This document shows, piece by piece, positions 5,848 through 50,882 of a DNA stretch of 64,000 bases. The notes under the pieces are model-generated. The model was not told the DNA's origin. It searched no databases and saw nothing but the letters and a program-made list of their open reading frames with translations. The position numbers and the translations under genes are program-made. How positions within the stretch are numbered: the stretch's first letter is position 1; each line of letters begins with the position of its first letter. The DNA comes from Minisyncoccia bacterium. Its GTDB lineage: Bacteria; Patescibacteriota; Minisyncoccia; Phycocordibacterales; UBA9973. Where the stretch lies: NCBI GenBank assembly GCA_049287305.1, contig JBAQFO010000012.1:89768-153767 (forward strand). Direction: 5' to 3'.

Positions 5848-5865
5848 AAGACTGGAGGCCTAAGC

Positions 5866-6063
5866 ATGGTCAATTGCGAGAGCTGTCAGATGCGGTCGCT
5901 CAAGGAATGTGAACGGTGTGCAACCAATTTCCTCATGGAAAACAAGTGCACACCGGAAGGGGCTCCTGTTCAGGTGGAGCCCTTCGACGCACGCAACCGC
6001 CTTCGGTTCGACCCGAACATGTTCGTGTCGAACCGGAAGCGTCGCCAGCTCAATCCGTCCTAA
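5866..6063 (+). CDS. small GC-rich Cys-motif protein (CESC-x9-CERC), hypothetical
   Basis: The SD GGAGG sits 7 nt before the ATG and a terminator lies downstream. Codons are strongly GC-rich compared with ileS. The region also holds a 12-bp inverted repeat, CTTCGGTTCGAC...GTCGAACCGGAAG. Confidence 0.35.
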   Translation: MVNCESCQMRSLKECERCATNFLMENKCTPEGAPVQVEPFDARNRLRFDPNMFVSNRKRRQLNPS

Positions 6064-6086
6064 GTCCAGCATCCTCTGCTGGCAGA

Positions 6087-6132
6087 ATCCGTCGGGAGCG
6101 CACCTTCGTTGCGCCCGACGGATTTTAATTTT
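6087..6132 (+). terminator. intrinsic terminator: ATCCGTCGGG ... CCCGACGGAT with inner GCGCA/TGCGC, then TTTAATTTT
   Basis: A perfect 10-bp outer stem plus a 5-bp inner stem, followed by a T tract. Confidence 0.7.
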
Positions 6133-6148
6133 ATGGTAAAATATAGTT

Positions 6149-6790
6149 ATGAAGATCAAGAAACTTGGACACTCCTGCCTAGTAATTAATATTAACGGGG
6201 CTAAGATAATGTTGGACCCCGGCAAGTATTCTCTGTCTCAGGTTGAAGAAAGGGATATTGACATAATTCTAATCACGCACGAGCATAGTGATCATTGCCA
6301 CTTAGAATCTATTAAAAAGATATTGGAGAATAACCCACAAGCAGAAATAATTACCAACTTTTCGGTAGGGAAAATTCTGGAGAAAGAAAGTATTAACTAT
6401 GCAATGATTGAAGATGGGCAGAAGGTTGTAAGTCATGGTGTTACTATTATTGGTGTGGGGAAATTACACATAGAAGCACATCGTAGAATTCCTGTGGTTC
6501 CAAATACTGGTTTTATAATAAATGACAAGTTTTTTTACCCCGGGGATGCGTTGCACATACCAAAACATAAGGTAGAAGTTGTTGCCTTTCCTGTTGGCGG
6601 AGGATTTCTTAAAATCAGCGAAGTTGTTGAGTGGCTCGAAACACTTAAACCCAAAGTGGCTATTCCTGTGCATGATGGCCTACTAAACGAAGACGGTAAA
6701 AAAACTTTCTATAAAAATTACCAAAATATCCTTACAGGCACCGGAATTGAATTTAAGGCATTAGAAGTAAATAAAGAAGAAGAATTTTGA
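6149..6790 (+). CDS. MBL-fold metallo-hydrolase
   Basis: ITHEHSDH (the HxHxDH motif) and further His and Asp ligands downstream. Confidence 0.8.
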   Translation: MKIKKLGHSCLVININGAKIMLDPGKYSLSQVEERDIDIILITHEHSDHCHLESIKKILENNPQAEIITNFSVGKILEKESINYAMIEDGQKVVSHGVTIIGVGKLHIEAHRRIPVVPNTGFIINDKFFYPGDALHIPKHKVEVVAFPVGGGFLKISEVVEWLETLKPKVAIPVHDGLLNEDGKKTFYKNYQNILTGTGIEFKALEVNKEEEF

Positions 6791-26420: not shown

Positions 26421-26609
26421 CTTTTTTGTTGTATAATTAGACTATATGAATCCCGTTAGAAGCCCCCGCCCGCTTTCGCCAGAGCAAAGCGATGGCGGGT
26501 GGGGCGATCGCAATGTAAAAACAAATAAAAATATGAAGTTAAATATTGTAAGAATTAATAACTTAACATATCAGATACGCGAGATGATCGCGATCTGCTT
26601 CTAAACGGG

Positions 26610-28544
26610 ATGAATTCAATCATCAGAAAAATAATCTTGGTTTTCATTTTTATATTGCCTTTTATAATTTTCCCATATACACCATATTCAATGGTGTTTT
26701 CAAAATCTCTTTTTTTAGAGGGTGTTACTCTCGTTATTGGTGTTCTTTGGATAATGGGCAAATTATTTAAAACAGAAACAGAAACAGAAAAAATTTCTAG
26801 AAATATCACCCTCTTTGTATTTGGAGTTTATGTTTTTTCTCTTTTAATTTCTGCTCTTAGTAGTTTTGTTCCCGGACTTTCATTTTGGGGAACCTTGGAC
26901 CATGGGACCGGAGCTGTTTTTATGCTGTGTTTATTCCTTTTTTCTGTCATTACCAGTTCGGTGTTTAAAAAGATAGAAGATTGGTACACACTTTTTACAA
27001 CTTTTGTGATTTCAGGAATTATTTTCACCTCGGGAACTTTTTTATCAGAAATGGGGATGAATTTTTTTCCCACTATAACGATCAATGCTTCAGGAGGTTT
27101 TCTTGTTGGCAACTCATCTTGGGCGGGAATTTATCTTGCTTTTGTTTTTTTTATAAGCCTAGGACTTACATTTTCACCACAAAACAAAAGTCATAGAGTT
27201 ATTGGTTTTTTGGGTTTAATCTTTACATTTTTTAACCCAATTATTACTGGCTTTATAATTCCGGCCCCTGATCAGTCTTTTCGGCTCATTGGTTTAGCTC
27301 GAGCATCATTATACTCTATTTTTGCTGGTACTAGTTTTTTTGTTCTTTATTTGTTTTTTAGAAAAATAACATCTATAAAGTGGAGAAAGATATGTATAGG
27401 AAGTTTTATTACGATTTTGGTTGCAGTATCTTTGTTTGTAGTAATCAGCCCAGGTGTGTTTCGTCAGGGCATATCTGAAACAGCCGGTCCAAATAGATTG
27501 ATCTTTTGGGATATTGCAGTTTCTAGTTTCAAAGAACATCCAGTTCTGGGGTGGGGTGGTGATACTTATCAGTTTGCATATGCGAAATATTTTAACCCAA
27601 TTATTACTTCTCCAGGTTATTCTCCAGAATATTGGGCAGATCGTGCACATAGTATATATTTTGACGAACTTCACGCTGGAGGTTTTATTGGTTTTATTTT
27701 ACTTATGTTTTTGTATGGAATAATTTTATTTGGTCTTTTACGTAATGGAATAAAACAAAATGATGAAAATAATATTTTGTTTATGGCTTTGGCGGCTGGG
27801 TTAATCTCTTTTTTGATACAAGGGCTGTTGTTGTTTCAGACTATTGTTGGTTGGGTGGTTGTGTCTATAGTTATTGCTTTTGTTGCTAATTTTTGTTTTA
27901 TGGATAGAAATGTAATTGATACTAAGATTGAGAAGAATAAAAAAAGAAATAAAGACAGTGATAATACTTTTCGTAATTTGTTTTCAGTAGTTGTTATAGT
28001 GATTTTTGGATTTTTATTTTACTATGTAATAATTGTGCCTTATCGTGTTGCTAATATGTTGGCTAGATTTCCGACTGAGTCTTATAGTAAAAGGTTAGAG
28101 CTTTATAAAGAAATAGATAATGCTTATATAGGAAATACCACAGATTTAGGAAATATTTTTTTACCATATCATATTAGACTTAGGCAAATATTGAAAAAAG
28201 GACTCAAGGATGAAGAAAAAAAATTAATGATAAACGAAGCCAAAGAAATTATTAGAATTTTGGATAATGGTTTAAAAAAGCAAGATTACAAAGAGCTGAA
28301 AATTTTGATGGGACAAGCAGGATTTTACTCAGTAGTTATAGCGTTAACTGACGGACAGGAAAGACAAGCTTATTATGATCAAAGTCTGTTTTATGTGGAA
28401 AAAATGAAGCTAGCTTCTCCTCAAAGCCCGACACCAGAAATAGCCAAAGCCCTGCTAGACATTTCCCTCAAATATGGCGAAGAAGGTCTGGATCTTTTAA
28501 ATTTGGATAAAGAAAAAGCTATAAAAGAAAGTAATAATAATTAA
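26610..28544 (+). CDS. O-antigen ligase/polymerase family (Wzy_C-like) membrane protein with a soluble C-terminal extension
   Basis: More than ten TM helices and a central periplasmic loop pattern (WGGDTYQF...YWADRAHSIYFDELHAGGFIG). Confidence 0.5.
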   Translation: MNSIIRKIILVFIFILPFIIFPYTPYSMVFSKSLFLEGVTLVIGVLWIMGKLFKTETETEKISRNITLFVFGVYVFSLLISALSSFVPGLSFWGTLDHGTGAVFMLCLFLFSVITSSVFKKIEDWYTLFTTFVISGIIFTSGTFLSEMGMNFFPTITINASGGFLVGNSSWAGIYLAFVFFISLGLTFSPQNKSHRVIGFLGLIFTFFNPIITGFIIPAPDQSFRLIGLARASLYSIFAGTSFFVLYLFFRKITSIKWRKICIGSFITILVAVSLFVVISPGVFRQGISETAGPNRLIFWDIAVSSFKEHPVLGWGGDTYQFAYAKYFNPIITSPGYSPEYWADRAHSIYFDELHAGGFIGFILLMFLYGIILFGLLRNGIKQNDENNILFMALAAGLISFLIQGLLLFQTIVGWVVVSIVIAFVANFCFMDRNVIDTKIEKNKKRNKDSDNTFRNLFSVVVIVIFGFLFYYVIIVPYRVANMLARFPTESYSKRLELYKEIDNAYIGNTTDLGNIFLPYHIRLRQILKKGLKDEEKKLMINEAKEIIRILDNGLKKQDYKELKILMGQAGFYSVVIALTDGQERQAYYDQSLFYVEKMKLASPQSPTPEIAKALLDISLKYGEEGLDLLNLDKEKAIKESNNN

Positions 28545-29456: not shown

Positions 29457-29734
29457 TCCCGTTAGAGATCACTTATGTTTTATTACACATATACTTTAAA
29501 AAGTAAGAAAGATGGCAAAATTTATACAGGATATACGCAAGACCTACGGAAGCGCCCGAGTGAGCATAATAAAGGTTTATCTACATATACTAAAGGACGA
29601 GGCCCATTTATTTTGATATACTACGAAGGGTGCTTATTAAAAGATAAAGCTAGGTCGAGAGAATTATATTTAAAATCAGGAATGGGCAAGCGTTATCTAA
29701 AAAATAGATTAGGCGCTTCCTACCTCTAACGGGA
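29457..29734. repeat. perfect 11-bp inverted repeats TCCCGTTAGAG (29457-29467) and CTCTAACGGGA (29724-29734) bracketing GIY-YIG copy 1
   Basis: Read from the sequence. The right repeat overlaps the GIY-YIG stop and the gmd ATG. Confidence 0.7.
29475..29729 (+). CDS. small stand-alone GIY-YIG nuclease-superfamily protein (YhbQ/UPF0213-like), copy 1
   Basis: [28 protein letters not shown]...ELYLK, with GIY-YIG-like YTGYT and a conserved Arg and Glu. About 85 aa. Paralogous to copies 2 and 3. Confidence 0.75.
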
Positions 29735-31731: not shown

Positions 31732-32577
31732 ATGATAACTGTAAGATTAAAAGGGGGTTTGGGTAATCAGATGTTTCAATATGCCTTAGGGCGTGCTTTG
31801 TCTATTAAAAATAACACAACTCTCGGACTAGATATCGGTTTTTATGATATGAATCTAAACCCTAAGAGGCAATACGACCTGGAGGTGTTTAATATTGCCG
31901 GAAAAGTTCTGGAGCAGAAAGAAATTCCTTTTTTATACAGATTTTGTCATAAAAGCAAAATTTTGGATAAAATTACAAGATATGGATTTAAAGAAAAATC
32001 TTTTGATTTTGATCCGCAGATTTTTTGTCGTGGATCAAGCTTATACATAGATGGATACTGGCAAAGTCCGAAATACTTTGAAGATTTTGAGGATGAAATT
32101 AGAAAAGATTTTACTTTAAAAAACCCACCAGTTCAAAACATAGAAGACCTTGCGAAAGAAATAGAGCATATAAATTCGGTGTGCGTTCATGTGCGCAGAG
32201 GGGATTATGTAGGAAATAAAAATCATGAAATTGTAGATAATGAATATTATATAAAAGGCATTGAGTATATAAAAAATCATGCGTCAGTAGATAAAATATA
32301 TGTTTTTTCTGATGACATAGAATGGTGTAAAAATAGTTTAAAATTTGAATTTTCTACGGTATTTGTGGATAGCGTATACGCAGGAGAAAAAGGAGAAGGG
32401 CATATGTTTTTAATGAGTAAGTGTAAAAATTTTATAATTGCGAACAGCTCCTTTTCTTGGTGGGCTGCTTGGCTTTCTAACAATAAAGAGAAAATTGTAA
32501 TTTGTCCCAAACAATGGTTTCCTGATAAATCTATATACACAAACGATTTAATACCAAAAGAGTGGGTAAGAATATGA
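31732..32577 (+). CDS. alpha-1,2-fucosyltransferase (GT11 family)
   Basis: GT11 motifs GGLGNQMFQYA, HVRRGDY and ANSSFSWWAAW. Confidence 0.8.
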   Translation: MITVRLKGGLGNQMFQYALGRALSIKNNTTLGLDIGFYDMNLNPKRQYDLEVFNIAGKVLEQKEIPFLYRFCHKSKILDKITRYGFKEKSFDFDPQIFCRGSSLYIDGYWQSPKYFEDFEDEIRKDFTLKNPPVQNIEDLAKEIEHINSVCVHVRRGDYVGNKNHEIVDNEYYIKGIEYIKNHASVDKIYVFSDDIEWCKNSLKFEFSTVFVDSVYAGEKGEGHMFLMSKCKNFIIANSSFSWWAAWLSNNKEKIVICPKQWFPDKSIYTNDLIPKEWVRI

Positions 32578-32604
32578 ATCCCGTAGTAGATTTTTAATTA
32601 GATT

Positions 32605-32877
32605 ATGTTCTACACATATATATTACAAAGTCAGAAAAATAAAGAACTATATATTGGTTATACTTCAGATTTAAAAAGAAGAGTCGAAGAACATAATCAA
32701 GGGTTAAATTTTTCTACAAAAAGATATATTCCATGGAATATCATATACTACGAAGCGTGTATAGAAGAAAGTGATGCTAAGCGCAGAGAGAAATATCTGA
32801 AAACAACACAAGGGAATAGATTAATAAAGAGAAGGATAAAAGATTATATTTATAAGTTGAAAAATTTAACAAATTAA
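32605..32877 (+). CDS. small stand-alone GIY-YIG nuclease-superfamily protein, copy 2
   Basis: MFYTYILQSQKNKELYIGYTSDLKRRVEEHN. It is bracketed by the imperfect inverted repeat TCCCGTAGTAG (32579-32589) and CACTACAGG (32883-32891). Confidence 0.75.
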   Translation: MFYTYILQSQKNKELYIGYTSDLKRRVEEHNQGLNFSTKRYIPWNIIYYEACIEESDAKRREKYLKTTQGNRLIKRRIKDYIYKLKNLTN

Positions 32878-32891
32878 AAATTCACTACAGG

Positions 32892-34232
32892 ATGATAAAT
32901 ATAATCAATAAAATTAAAAGTTTAACACTCGAGCAGATAAACAAAAACCTAGTTTTTTTGGCTATTATCGCCTTAATTTACCGAAAAGGTAATTTTTACA
33001 ATACTTTTGTTCCAAAGCCATTTGAAATAATTCTCGTACTGATTATCATTCTTACATTTGTGCATTTACTAATCAATAAGAAATTTAAAGCTTTTTTCTC
33101 TTCAATTGATAAAAAAATTTGGATAGCATTGTCGTGCCTCCTGGTATCTGTTTTTGTGGGCTGGGCTGTAGCTGTATTTTTTAAGAATGTGCCGATAAAT
33201 TTCAATGTTATTTTAGAGTTTGGGAATTTTGTAATTTCTTTGGTGATATTTGTATTGGTTTTATTTTACACAAAAAATGATAAAATATTTGCCCAAAAAT
33301 ATTTATACGCATTACTTTTGCCGGCTGTATATACGATTTTTGTGTTATTCACCGAAGGGGCTAATTACTTTAACTTGGAAAACAACGGCACATTTCTTGG
33401 GCTTACAATCAATCCGAATATAATTTCTAAAATATTGCTTATTCCTGCGTTATTCTTTATAACGCATTCTTTGTTTAAACTTCAAAACAGGTGGCTGAGA
33501 ATTGGATATATTGCTATTTCTTGCGCTATGGTTGCTTTATTGTTTTGGGTTGCATCCAGGGGAGGATTGGTTTCTTTGGCGATTTCAATGATGTTCGTGT
33601 GGCTTGTTTTTTCTTTACATCATTTTAATTGGAAAAAACTATTTTATAGTGGTGGACTTCTCTTCATTATATTTTTAATTGGATTTCTTATAACTCCGCA
33701 AACTGGGAAGCAGAGGGTTATCCTTCGAGCTTTATACCCAAGTGGATCTGATTATTCTAGTTATGTCGAAGTTATAAATAAACCGGTTGACGATATTGTA
33801 TCTAAATTTATTACTGATAAGTCAGATAAGCATGTTTTTATTTATGCTAATGGAGAAAATCGTTTTAAAATTTGGCCATTTTATTTAAAGTACATATTGA
33901 TGAACCCACTTGGTATAGGGCCAAATACTCACTTGAGCTTTAGCTTAAAGGATAATGTTGGAGAATATATAAATTCAGGTCCACATAATACTTTCCTACA
34001 AATTTGGCTATGGGGAGGACTGCTAGGGATACTGAGTTTCTTATATATCTTTATCAATGCATTTAAAAACCTAAGATTACAATTAAAATCAGAATTTAAT
34101 CCTACTGCCTTGGCATTGCTTGGAGTTCTATTTGCTGTTAGTATTTCTGTCATGTTTGATGACAGCTTATCATTTTTTTGGTTTTTTATAATTTTAGCTT
34201 TGACATTGAGATATGAAAATACCAGTAGTTAG
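32892..34232 (+). CDS. O-antigen polymerase/ligase-like (Wzy family) membrane protein
   Basis: About 11 TM helices; the WVASRGGLVSLAISMMF pattern is typical of the Wzy_C region. Confidence 0.45.
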   Translation: MINIINKIKSLTLEQINKNLVFLAIIALIYRKGNFYNTFVPKPFEIILVLIIILTFVHLLINKKFKAFFSSIDKKIWIALSCLLVSVFVGWAVAVFFKNVPINFNVILEFGNFVISLVIFVLVLFYTKNDKIFAQKYLYALLLPAVYTIFVLFTEGANYFNLENNGTFLGLTINPNIISKILLIPALFFITHSLFKLQNRWLRIGYIAISCAMVALLFWVASRGGLVSLAISMMFVWLVFSLHHFNWKKLFYSGGLLFIIFLIGFLITPQTGKQRVILRALYPSGSDYSSYVEVINKPVDDIVSKFITDKSDKHVFIYANGENRFKIWPFYLKYILMNPLGIGPNTHLSFSLKDNVGEYINSGPHNTFLQIWLWGGLLGILSFLYIFINAFKNLRLQLKSEFNPTALALLGVLFAVSISVMFDDSLSFFWFFIILALTLRYENTSS

Positions 34233-44355: not shown

Positions 44356-45360
44356 TTACTTTTCGTGTTTATTGCAATCTAAGTATTTTTTTGAAATGAT
44401 TTTCTGCCACCAAGGCTTGTTTTCTTCATACCATTTAATGGTCTTTTGTATTCCTTCTTCAAAAGATACAGAAGGGCTCCATCCTAATTCTCGGGTAATT
44501 TTTGAATGATCCATGGCATAACGCATATCGTGCCCCCTACGATCTTCTACGAAAGTTTGTAAACTTTTCGGTTTATTTAGCAGGTTCAATATGGTATCAG
44601 TAATTTCAAGTCCATTTTTCTCTGAATCTCCCCCGATGCAATACGTCTCTCCTATTTTGCCTTTGTGGATTATTAAATCAAGAGCTTCACAATGATCTAT
44701 GACATACAAATAGTCTCGCACAGCTTTACCTTTACCATAAACAGGCAAAGGTTTGTTTTCAAAAGCATTAGTTATAAAAAGTGGGATTATTTTTTCCGGA
44801 AACTGGAACGGGCCATAGTTATTTGTACAGTTTGAAATTGTGGCAGGGAAATTGTATGTTTCAATGAAAGCCCTGACTAGGTGATCTGAGCCAGCCTTTG
44901 ATGCGGAGTAAGGGGACCTAGGAGAATACGGAGTATTCTCCTTAAATTTTTCTCCCGGTTTGTCGAGCGACAAGGTGCCGAAAACTTCGTCGGTGGATAC
45001 GTGGTGAAATCTTTTTAAATTAAACTTTCTTGCAGTTTCTAACAACACCAGTGTGCCTTTGACATTGGTTTCGACAAAATCTTCTGGGTTCTCAATTGAC
45101 CTATCCACGTGGGACTCGGCGGCAAAATGAACCACCAAATCACATCCCGTCATTGCTTGCATAACTATTTTTCTATCGCAAATGTCGCCGTGAATAAATG
45201 TATAATTTGGGTTATTCTCTATGCTTTTTAAATTGTCTAAATTTCCAGCATAGGTTAGTTTGTCTAGGTTTACTACCTCGTAGGTAGGGTATTTATTCAT
45301 CATATAGATGATAAAGTTTGAACCTATGAATCCAGCTCCACCCGTGACTAGAATTTTCAT
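44356..45360 (-). CDS. rfbB: dTDP-glucose 4,6-dehydratase
   Basis: MKILVTGGAGFIGSNF and YSASK. The start ATG at 45358-45360 overlaps the stop of GIY-YIG copy 3. The longer track ORF to 45465 is that upstream gene read in another frame. Confidence 0.9.
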   Translation of the reverse strand: MKILVTGGAGFIGSNFIIYMMNKYPTYEVVNLDKLTYAGNLDNLKSIENNPNYTFIHGDICDRKIVMQAMTGCDLVVHFAAESHVDRSIENPEDFVETNVKGTLVLLETARKFNLKRFHHVSTDEVFGTLSLDKPGEKFKENTPYSPRSPYSASKAGSDHLVRAFIETYNFPATISNCTNNYGPFQFPEKIIPLFITNAFENKPLPVYGKGKAVRDYLYVIDHCEALDLIIHKGKIGETYCIGGDSEKNGLEITDTILNLLNKPKSLQTFVEDRRGHDMRYAMDHSKITRELGWSPSVSFEEGIQKTIKWYEENKPWWQKIISKKYLDCNKHEK

Positions 45361-45629
45361 CACGTATGAAATAGGAATCGTTTTAAACGAGAATTTAAAT
45401 ATCTTCTCCCCATTCCTGTTTTTAAATATAATTCTCTCGACCGAGCATCGTCTGCGTTTAGACATGCCTCATAGTACATAATCTTATATGGTCCACGTCC
45501 TTTTGTATATGTTGACTTACCTTCATTGTGCTGTTTAAAACGCTTCCGTAATTCACTCGTATATCCAATATACCACTTATTATTCTTTTGACTTTGTAAA
45601 ACGTAAGTATAGAACATATTAGATTTCAT
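45360..45629 (-). CDS. small stand-alone GIY-YIG nuclease-superfamily protein, copy 3 (probable start at MFYTY, 45617)
   Basis: MFYTYVLQSQKNNKWYIGYTSELRKRFKQHN; STYTKGRGP and ARSRELYLK are shared with copy 1. The direct repeat CGTGACTA occurs at 45343-45350 and 45631-45638. Confidence 0.75.
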   Translation of the reverse strand: MKSNMFYTYVLQSQKNNKWYIGYTSELRKRFKQHNEGKSTYTKGRGPYKIMYYEACLNADDARSRELYLKTGMGRRYLNSRLKRFLFHT

Positions 45630-45635
45630 ACGTGA

Positions 45636-50055: not shown

Positions 50056-50475
50056 ATGATAAGAGGATTTACTTGTGGAGCTATGGACTTGTTGCATGCG
50101 GGACATATTTTGATGTTAAAAGAATGTAAAACTCAATGTGATTTTCTTGTAGTGGGGCTACAAACTGATCCAACCATAGATAGACCAGAAAAAAATAAAC
50201 CCATAGAAACGTTAGAGGAGAGATTGATACGTCTAGAAGGATGTAAATACGTGGATGGGGTGGTAACGTATGACACAGAAGAAGATCTTTATCAGCTTCT
50301 TCTAAAACTAAAACCCGACCTTCGTTTTATGGGAGCGGACTGGAAGAGTAAGAAGAATTATTCCAGAGACAAACTTCCTTCTATGCAAGTTATTTACAAC
50401 AGTCGAGACCATGGATACTCTAGTAGTGACTTAAGGAAAAGGATTATGAACAGCCAGAAACCCCACGGGATTTAA
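50056..50475 (+). CDS. cytidylyltransferase-like nucleotidyltransferase (TagD/RfaE-II type)
   Basis: CGAMDLLHAGH (HxGH motif), 139 aa. Confidence 0.75.
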   Translation: MIRGFTCGAMDLLHAGHILMLKECKTQCDFLVVGLQTDPTIDRPEKNKPIETLEERLIRLEGCKYVDGVVTYDTEEDLYQLLLKLKPDLRFMGADWKSKKNYSRDKLPSMQVIYNSRDHGYSSSDLRKRIMNSQKPHGI

Positions 50476-50573
50476 ATCAAAAAGTCTTTTTTGCTCATTA
50501 TAGTTTTTATAAGTGTTTTAGCTAAGTGGTAGTTTGGTTTGCCTAAAATAGTAATTTTCTATACAATAAGAAG

Positions 50574-50882
50574 ATGGAAAATGATTCAATCAACGAAAAT
50601 ATCCCTGAAGAAGACAAAGCTCCGACTCGACTTGAGATAATTCAAAGCAAAAAGAATCTAATAATGCTGATAGTTGGAGTCTTGGTTTTGGCGACCTTGG
50701 CTATTTTCGGAGCTTCAAAATATTTGAAACCCGTGAGACTTGAAACCATAGAAGATGGTTGCCGTTCGGGCGACAGATTTAGTCAGACGACAGGCAAGCC
50801 GTGTCAGGGAGGAGAATTGCCTCCGACTTGCCTAGAAGGAGACCTCTTCAATCATGAAACGGGTGAACCGTGTCTGGAATAA
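50574..50882 (+). CDS. small membrane-anchored protein with two Cys-bracketed repeats
   Basis: A TM helix followed by CRSGDRFSQTTGKPC and CLEGDLFNHETGEPC. Confidence 0.5.
   Translation: MENDSINENIPEEDKAPTRLEIIQSKKNLIMLIVGVLVLATLAIFGASKYLKPVRLETIEDGCRSGDRFSQTTGKPCQGGELPPTCLEGDLFNHETGEPCLE

Follow-up and report, generated by a model that had tools for sequence, protein, structure and literature searches.

Three small open reading frames (ORFs) for proteins of the GIY-YIG nuclease superfamily interrupt the tightly packed glycan cluster of a Minisyncoccia bacterium, each ending close to or on the start codon of the next gene, and the question that this locus raises is how they came to lie there. 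The ORFs fall within a stretch of 64,000 nucleotides of contig JBAQFO010000012.1 (hereafter the window), which belongs to a metagenome-assembled genome of the Patescibacteria, and the second of them, copy 2, is our main subject. An earlier note on this DNA had described imperfect inverted repeats around copy 2. Judged from sequence, copy 2 is very likely an eroded member of a family of mobile elements with terminal inverted repeats (TIRs) and target-site duplications (TSDs), and the family as a whole is very likely of this kind; we call copy 2 eroded because its 13-bp TIRs are complementary at 10 of 13 positions and its TSD matches at three of four. More broadly, this is probably a small transposon-like family that inserts at start codons and carries the GIY-YIG protein as its own nuclease. 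It is widespread in bacteria of the candidate phyla radiation (CPR) and apparently undescribed.

Empty alleles and the anatomy of copy 2

Syntenic contigs from other samples were reached through homologues of the fucosyltransferase encoded upstream of copy 2 (76–86% identical). In one of them, L093, the fucosyltransferase protein is 84% and the flanking DNA about 84% identical to the window. L093 lacks all four elements found in the window, namely GIY-YIG copies 1 to 3 and a unit without an ORF, and no GIY-YIG or TIR sequence was found in it. Its blastn alignment to the window breaks at window positions 26451–26609, 32579–32891 and 45361–45634, and these breaks coincide with TIR ends for three of the four elements. 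At the copy 2 site the L093 allele, GGGTAAGAATATGAAAAATATAAT, has a single TGAA and reads GGGTAAGAATA-TGAA-AAATATAAT, where the window reads GGGTAAGAATA-TGAA-element-TGAT-AAATATAAT. In this empty allele the stop codon of the GT11 fucosyltransferase gene and the start codon of the Wzy gene overlap as ATGA, within ATGAA. Contigs L088–L090 (86% identical) are also empty at this site.

The other three junctions of the window likewise have cassette-free counterparts. At the 26447 site L093 reads TATAATTAAGCTATA-TGAA-CTCAAT, again with a single TGAA and with flanks about 84% identical, and the window carries TGAA, 160 bp and a second TGAA. In L092 (76% identical) the epimerase gene and gmd are directly adjacent without copy 1; L093 has, exactly at the copy 1 position, a gene for a 220-aa HAD/trehalose-phosphatase-like protein (5865–6527), so this junction has been remodelled twice. 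At the copy 3 site L093 has a 16-nt spacer between rmlC and rmlB with no cassette, and in the window this spacer and any left repeat are gone. Cassette-free alleles, which the earlier note had proposed to seek in related assemblies, thus exist at the window junctions, and they bear out its reading of the GIY-YIG ORFs as discrete insertions, bounded by inverted repeats, in a tight glycan gene array.

The arms that had been described around copy 2 are present in the sequence, TCCCGTAGTAG at 32579–32589 and CACTACAGG at 32883–32891, the latter abutting the ATG at 32892–32894. The 9-mer pair as first described (7 of 9 positions complementary) is by itself at chance level, being equalled in 66% of random windows of the same geometry from the 26–49 kb region, and it covers only part of the 13-bp TIRs. 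The claim of an inverted repeat holds for the extended arms: the full arms, ATCCCGTAGTAGATTTTTAATT and AATTAAAAATTCACTACAGGAT, which extend to 22 nt, score 13, where the 99.9th percentile of the null is 11 (P about 0.0005 for this region). Minimum free energy (MFE) RNA folds predict that each of the four window elements pairs one arm with the other, and the predicted long-range stem of copy 2 covers the GIY-YIG AUG.

The ends of the element are interlocked with the start and stop codons of the host genes. The left TSD copy retains the overlapping stop codon of the upstream gene together with the original ATG, and the terminal A of the element joins the TG of the right TSD copy to restore the ATG of the downstream gene. 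The ATGAA in front of the left arm is the host start codon plus the 4-bp TSD, not a translation-initiation context brought in with the cassette.

Terminal repeats, target sites and translation across the family

A scan of one genome per species gave 80 loci with relatives of the GIY-YIG proteins, nearly all in CPR metagenome-assembled genomes (MAGs), with some in MAGs labelled as other phyla. A test for flanking inverted repeats that used only the position of the ORF returned scores of at least 10 for 58% of the GIY-YIG homologues in other genomes, compared with 1% of position-shifted controls. The TIR consensus is TCCCGTTAGAGAT, with arms of the form T-CCCGTTAGAGAT ... ATCTCTAACGGG-A; the outer arm bases are C...G, not T...A, where the MAG is labelled non-CPR. 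We counted 22 TIR variants. Complementarity over 13 bp was perfect in 43 of 58, a fraction biased by the selection of this set for arm complementarity. Set against these sequences, the copy 2 arms are a recognisable variant of the TIR that surrounds GIY-YIG homologues elsewhere.

Directly outside the arms, exact 4-bp repeats occur in 17 of 38 cases in the genome set (permutation mean 5, maximum 11), and of the 20 cases with TG at the start of either flank, 15 agree in the two bases that follow, compared with 5.6 expected. The repeated sequence varies by element (TGAA, TGAG, TGGA, TGGG, TGCA, TGAC, CTAA and TTAA) and changes with the second codon of the host gene. By this pattern the short direct repeat is a target-site duplication and not shared context. 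An independent scan of metagenomes, in which a perfect TIR pair was the sole pattern, returned at least 120 stretches, from which 71 unique elements were taken. Among the matches listed, 44 of these 71 carry exact 4-bp TSDs (permutation maximum 33), the target consensus is A/TGAA, and the right end makes an ATG in 67, 63 of which open long ORFs.

Overall, about 130 elements were gathered from other genomes and metagenomes. Surviving insertions lie at start codons in the same orientation as the downstream gene. The downstream genes are diverse and unrelated to one another; read from their N-terminal motifs, they probably include ruvC, ruvX, recR, topA, L9, frr, murG and rmlC. An intact element is about 275–281 bp long and has a single ORF, for a GIY-YIG protein of 84–90 aa. 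About 40 ORF-less units of 64–170 bp share these ends and this duplication and occur in both orientations; they have the TIRs in common with the ORF-carrying elements but not the internal sequence. Three marks of a TIR transposon are to be found here: alleles with and without the insertion that differ exactly from TIR end to TIR end, TIRs conserved across copies, and a TSD that varies with the site.

Tandem or nested elements were seen in L138 (about 413–689), L179 (5099–5369), L036 (2729–3507), L011 (about 3259), L047 and L076. In L138 one element rebuilt an ATGAA and a second has gone into it; an insertion thus recreates the target that it used.

Of 27 ORF-carrying elements, 26 have the GIY-YIG stop codon either 4 nt before the host ATG, as a TAA in the right TIR, or overlapping it, as the TGA of the duplicated target. 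In 23 of the 71 metagenomic elements, again among the matches listed, a single ORF (MNPVRD...GIY-YIG) runs from the host ATG through the entire element to the duplicated TGA, and in one subclass the duplicated target gives the GIY-YIG ORF both its start and its stop codon. In L029 (3004–4497) a GIY-YIG frame without the right-end stop is continuous with the downstream gene in one ORF of 497 codons, perhaps a fusion, perhaps a relay that has broken.

The absence of a Shine–Dalgarno (SD) sequence had been put forward as a mark of the GIY-YIG ORFs; it proves to be a property of the genome, since 33 of 36 window genes have no SD-like motif. Several gene starts in the window (e.g. 7849, 54700 and 26446) have TATAAT 7–10 nt ahead of the ATG, a sign that translation here may be leaderless or coupled. 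With SD sequences hardly used and several genes leaderless in appearance, translational chaining is a plausible way of keeping the host gene expressed. The GIY-YIG ORF, apparently with neither a promoter nor a ribosome-binding site to itself, would depend for its expression on host transcription and the captured start codon. Termination-reinitiation would next give translation of the host gene, which would explain why insertions are tolerated where operons are tight and the genome is SD-less. Ribosome bypassing over the stem is a further possibility that need not be invoked.

The GIY-YIG protein and the mechanism of mobility

The three ORFs that had been called GIY-YIG paralogs all match PF01541, with 56–66 bits against a cutoff of 22.6, and are mutually 45–63% identical. 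The catalytic Y, Y, R, H and E residues are invariant in the three copies; across 54 relatives each is either invariant or conserved to 90% or more. An AlphaFold model of the copy 2 protein (pLDDT 95) found its best Protein Data Bank matches by Foldseek in 1zg2 (UPF0213 protein BH0048) and the Slx1 nuclease domain 7cq3 (TM 0.58–0.64, root mean square deviation 1.3 Å), with I-TevI ranking lower (TM 0.45); phmmer matched 1zg2 and 1ywl at E about 2e-3. These scores, all modest, place the proteins in the stand-alone Slx1/UPF0213 branch, with no accessory domain: at 84–90 aa they consist of the catalytic domain only and have no C-terminal DNA-binding domain. Their scores to TIGR01453, a family of group I intron endonucleases, are 20–22 bits against a cutoff of 56. 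At E<=1e-3 the protein family comprises 7,870 clusters at 50% identity.

How is such an element moved? We lean slightly towards the GIY-YIG protein as the mobilising nuclease, because the ORF is linked exclusively to these ends, its stop codon is embedded in the right arm, and the ORF-less copies would need a factor in trans. The protein would act on the TIRs, possibly on a stem into which the arms pair, as well as on the target, and would mobilise the ORF-less copies in trans. Enzymes of the Slx1 type are structure-specific; this, together with the strict complementarity of the arms and their compensatory variants, is the ground for the speculation that an arm stem is recognised. A bolder version, in which prokaryotes have a new class of DNA transposon with the Slx1-like GIY-YIG protein as its only enzyme, the smallest autonomous transposon known at about 280 bp, with ends and A/TGAA target evolved to supply start and stop codons and to rebuild the host start, is tentative, its chance falling just short of even. 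If true, this arrangement of ends and target would let the element colonise operon junctions in the SD-less, intergenic-poor genomes of CPR bacteria.

Several points weigh against a transposon moved by its own GIY-YIG nuclease. GIY-YIG enzymes are hydrolytic, and we know of none that catalyses strand transfer; the known double-strand cutters among them leave overhangs of 1–2 nt, not 4-nt staggers; and the 85-aa protein has no obvious DNA-binding domain with which to read a 13-bp TIR. In the window, the TIRs of copy 2 have three mismatches, the left TSD of copy 1 has decayed (TGTC vs TGAA), and copy 3 has no recognisable TSD. TSD length across the family is 4 bp but sometimes 3 or 5, and not strictly fixed. 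The relatives that supplied the empty alleles are about 15% diverged and belong to other populations, and exact-protein look-ups with GIY-YIG copy 2, gmd, rmlB and the fucosyltransferase returned solely filled alleles from the source samples. Among 75 metagenomic elements (median identity 72%) there were no near-identical copies at different sites and no sign of recent bursts. Both transposition by the element and its nuclease activity are putative.

The absence of recent identical copies among those 75 elements also counts towards the main alternative, in which a conventional transposase or recombinase encoded elsewhere moves the TIR units and the GIY-YIG protein is a passenger, or an addiction or maintenance nuclease like TnpB in IS605, so that both forms of the element are non-autonomous. 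A complete transposase in 85 aa, and a hydrolytic nuclease at that, is improbable, and ORF-less and ORF-carrying elements are alike in their TIRs only, not in their interiors. We nevertheless consider an unlinked transposase unlikely. In many MAGs, including ones assigned to other phyla, one and the same TIR accompanies one and the same small ORF; the right TIR has the ORF's stop codon built into it; no element contains any other gene; and no larger TIR-bounded unit was found within 4 kb in the window.

Much less probable is a set of free-standing homing endonuclease genes, like seg of phage T4, copied by repair into a cut empty allele with the repeats incidental. Such genes would account for small GIY-YIG ORFs wedged into tight gene arrays and for the weak matches to phage homing endonucleases (PHROGs, E about 1e-4; TIGR01453, 20 bits), the latter far below the family cutoff. 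The lack of a DNA-binding domain and a fold nearer to Slx1/UPF0213 than to I-TevI speak against it. Homing would give one cognate site, no TIR and no duplication; here the sites precede many unrelated genes, the duplications vary in sequence, the TIRs are conserved, and the ends are common to ORF-less copies. No perfect-TIR element was found in 2.9 million viral contigs.

Least probable of all is that nothing here is mobile and the repeats are the translation-initiation or RNA-structure context of a small, vertically inherited gene, which would suit the predicted pairing of the arms in mRNA and the overlap of the right arm with the C-terminus and stop codon of the ORF but is at odds with the precise presence and absence at three sites relative to the syntenic contig, a duplicated tetranucleotide that follows the second codon of the host gene, the same ends on ORF-less units, and the diversity of genomic contexts. 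Classical homing and a lack of mobility are both contradicted by the comparisons of sequence. Integron attC sites were raised by GTTRRRY-like flanks in the MAGs labelled as other phyla; the candidate was set aside, the flanking repeats being identical within an element and variable between elements, with the ORF between the arms and a sequence-variable duplication where an integron cassette would have neither; no search aimed at an integrase was made.

The TIR/TSD family shares features with several known systems. Like bacterial insertion sequences (IS) and MITEs (miniature inverted-repeat transposable elements) such as Correia of Neisseria and ERIC, it has TIRs, a short TSD, many sites, empty and filled alleles and short ORF-less derivatives, would be co-transcribed with host genes and has a predicted long mRNA hairpin. 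Unlike them, it has as its sole ORF an 84–90-aa GIY-YIG protein, with no DDE, DEDD, HUH, serine or tyrosine transposase; its ends and target rebuild the host start codon; and its ORF is placed so as to be translationally chained to the host gene. To our knowledge the smallest IS is IS200, at about 700 bp, and the ORF-carrying unit here, about 280 bp, is well below that size. Elements of the IS200/IS605 kind are similar in being very small, in having ends formed by intrastrand pairing and in having a sequence-specific target; they have no TIRs and no duplication, use an HUH Y1 transposase and insert 3' of a fixed tetra- or pentanucleotide.

With the seg genes of T-even phages and I-TevI the family has in common the GIY-YIG catalytic domain, the position of small selfish ORFs between the genes of an array, and expression that depends on the host transcript. 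It differs from them in lacking a DNA-binding domain, in scoring below the TIGR01453 cutoff, in its Slx1-like fold, and in its TIRs, TSDs and many unrelated sites. The protein agrees with Slx1-like/UPF0213 proteins (COG2827, YhbQ-type) in size, in its best sequence and structure matches (1zg2, 1ywl and Slx1) and in being a minimal domain. Dunin-Horkawicz et al. (2006, PMC1564403) regarded prokaryotic Slx1-like proteins as putative repair enzymes with vertical inheritance; unlike that family at large, a large subgroup lies here inside TIR/TSD units. Insertions in CPR rRNA genes that encode GIY-YIG proteins and are not introns have been reported, with no TIRs or duplications described (Tsurumaki et al. 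2024, PMC11270868). These insertions resemble the present elements in host group and in carrying GIY-YIG ORFs outside introns, and might be explained by the same family.

No description of this element architecture was found in the open-access literature searched, and a description outside that literature is possible. There is a substantial chance that this transposable element of the TIR/TSD kind represents a new transposase class. If the GIY-YIG protein does mobilise the units, it would bring a new enzyme class to prokaryotic transposition and push down the minimum size of autonomous elements. Whatever the mechanism, the anatomy offers a parasite a way into genomes with scant intergenic DNA, by hitting a start codon and rebuilding it, and the element would also link its own translation to that of its neighbours, upstream as well as downstream. 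Thousands of CPR genes annotated as GIY-YIG nucleases, presumably under names such as 'GIY-YIG nuclease family protein' and 'excinuclease ABC C subunit domain protein', are probably genes of mobile elements and not repair genes. The elements also mark recent insertions and deletions in glycan loci, and their repeats break assemblies. Two short-read contigs from the source samples, L084 (1–135) and L085 (1–41), end inside copy 1, so this repeated element does break assemblies.

The other elements of the window and their surroundings

The coordinates of the four elements are collected in Table 1.

Table 1. Positions, in window coordinates, of the TIR/TSD elements, their parts and their neighbours.
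Feature	Position	Strand	Details
Copy 2, whole element	32579–32892	+	314 bp; left-TIR T to right-TIR A; segment missing from L093 and L088–L090
Copy 2, original host ATG	32574–32576	+	
Copy 2, left TSD TGAA	32575–32578	+	includes fucosyltransferase stop TGA (32575–32577)
Copy 2, left TIR TCCCGTAGTAGAT	32579–32591	+	variant of family consensus TCCCGTTAGAGAT
Copy 2, leader ORF MNPVVDF-stop	32574–32597	+	from retained host ATG across left TIR; stop 7 nt before GIY-YIG ATG
Copy 2, GIY-YIG ORF	32605–32877	+	90 aa; Slx1/UPF0213 type; PF01541 66 bits
Copy 2, right TIR ATTCACTACAGGA	32880–32892	+	final A is the A of the Wzy ATG
Copy 2, right TSD TGAT	32893–32896	+	one change from TGAA; with terminal A of TIR makes Wzy start 32892–32894
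Copy 2, neighbours			GT11 fucosyltransferase upstream, Wzy-like gene downstream
Copy 1, whole element	29457–29734	+	278 bp; TIRs TCCCGTTAGAGAT (29457–29469) and ACCTCTAACGGGA (29722–29734)
Copy 1, GIY-YIG ORF	29475–29729	+	stop TAA within right TIR, 4 nt before gmd ATG at 29734
Copy 1, neighbours			epimerase upstream, gmd downstream
Copy 3, whole element	45360–45635	-	276 bp; perfect 13-bp TIR TCACGTATGAAAT / ATTTCATACGTGA
Copy 3, GIY-YIG ORF	45360–45629, or start at 45617	-	stop TGA overlaps rmlB ATG (45360–45358)
Copy 3, neighbours			rmlC upstream, rmlB downstream
ORF-less MITE-like element	26451–26610	+	160 bp; TIRs TCCCGTTAGAAGC and GCTTCTAAACGGGA
ORF-less element, TSD	26447–26450 and 26611–26614	+	perfect TGAA
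Empty-site sequence			GGGTAAGAATATGAWAAATATAATC

The arms of copy 1 share a perfect 11-mer, TCCCGTTAGAG. Another 11-mer, ATGAATCCCGT, with which the left repeat of copy 2 had been said to begin, does stand at 32574–32584 and has a second copy, at 26446–26456, one base away from the 26447 first given for it. That second site had been called empty. It is filled by the 160-bp ORF-less element, which has the same TIRs, and the true empty allele is the one in L093. The ORF-less element, at the leaderless-looking start of a second Wzy-like gene, consists of ATCCCGTTAGAAGC ... GCTTCTAAACGGGAT around 146 nt without a GIY-YIG ORF, and the first 10 nt of its TIR are identical to the TIR of copy 1. Its terminal A makes the ATG of the Wzy-like gene at 26610, and the retained host ATG at 26446 opens a 52-codon ORF that runs to a TAA of the right TIR and so stops 5 nt short of the rebuilt ATG. 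Short, bounded by TIRs and a TSD, devoid of a transposase-like ORF and with the ends of the ORF-carrying element, it has the features of a MITE.

Beyond these copies no extra ones were found in the window; one further pair, at 50464–50735, was rejected as resembling chance. Rfam covariance models run over the whole window gave no family at gathering score, neither a group I/II intron nor another known structured RNA; a tRNA scan found none, and promoter and terminator scans gave counts at the level of shuffled sequence. All four TIR elements lie inside the glycan cluster (window 26000–50000), with none in the other 45 kb; the cluster has 30–36% GC, compared with 41–47% outside it.

Two further groups of sequences were noticed alongside these elements. 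A subfamily of 78-aa GIY-YIG proteins lacks the CCCGTTAGAG arms (around position 3000 in L054, L056, L058, L059, L064, L065, L066, L072, L075, L078 and L081) and is immediately adjacent to tRNA-like sequence (GCTCAGTTGGTAGAGC, GGGTTCGATCCCC); possibly this is an insertion of another kind. Inside the ORF-less window element (26464–26596) are a GC-rich hairpin and GCGATCGC/GATCGCGATC motifs, and the element has an extended right end, TGATCGCGATCTGCTTCTAA, in common with a Daviesbacteria element (L024, 3304–3394), so the two form a distinct MITE subfamily.

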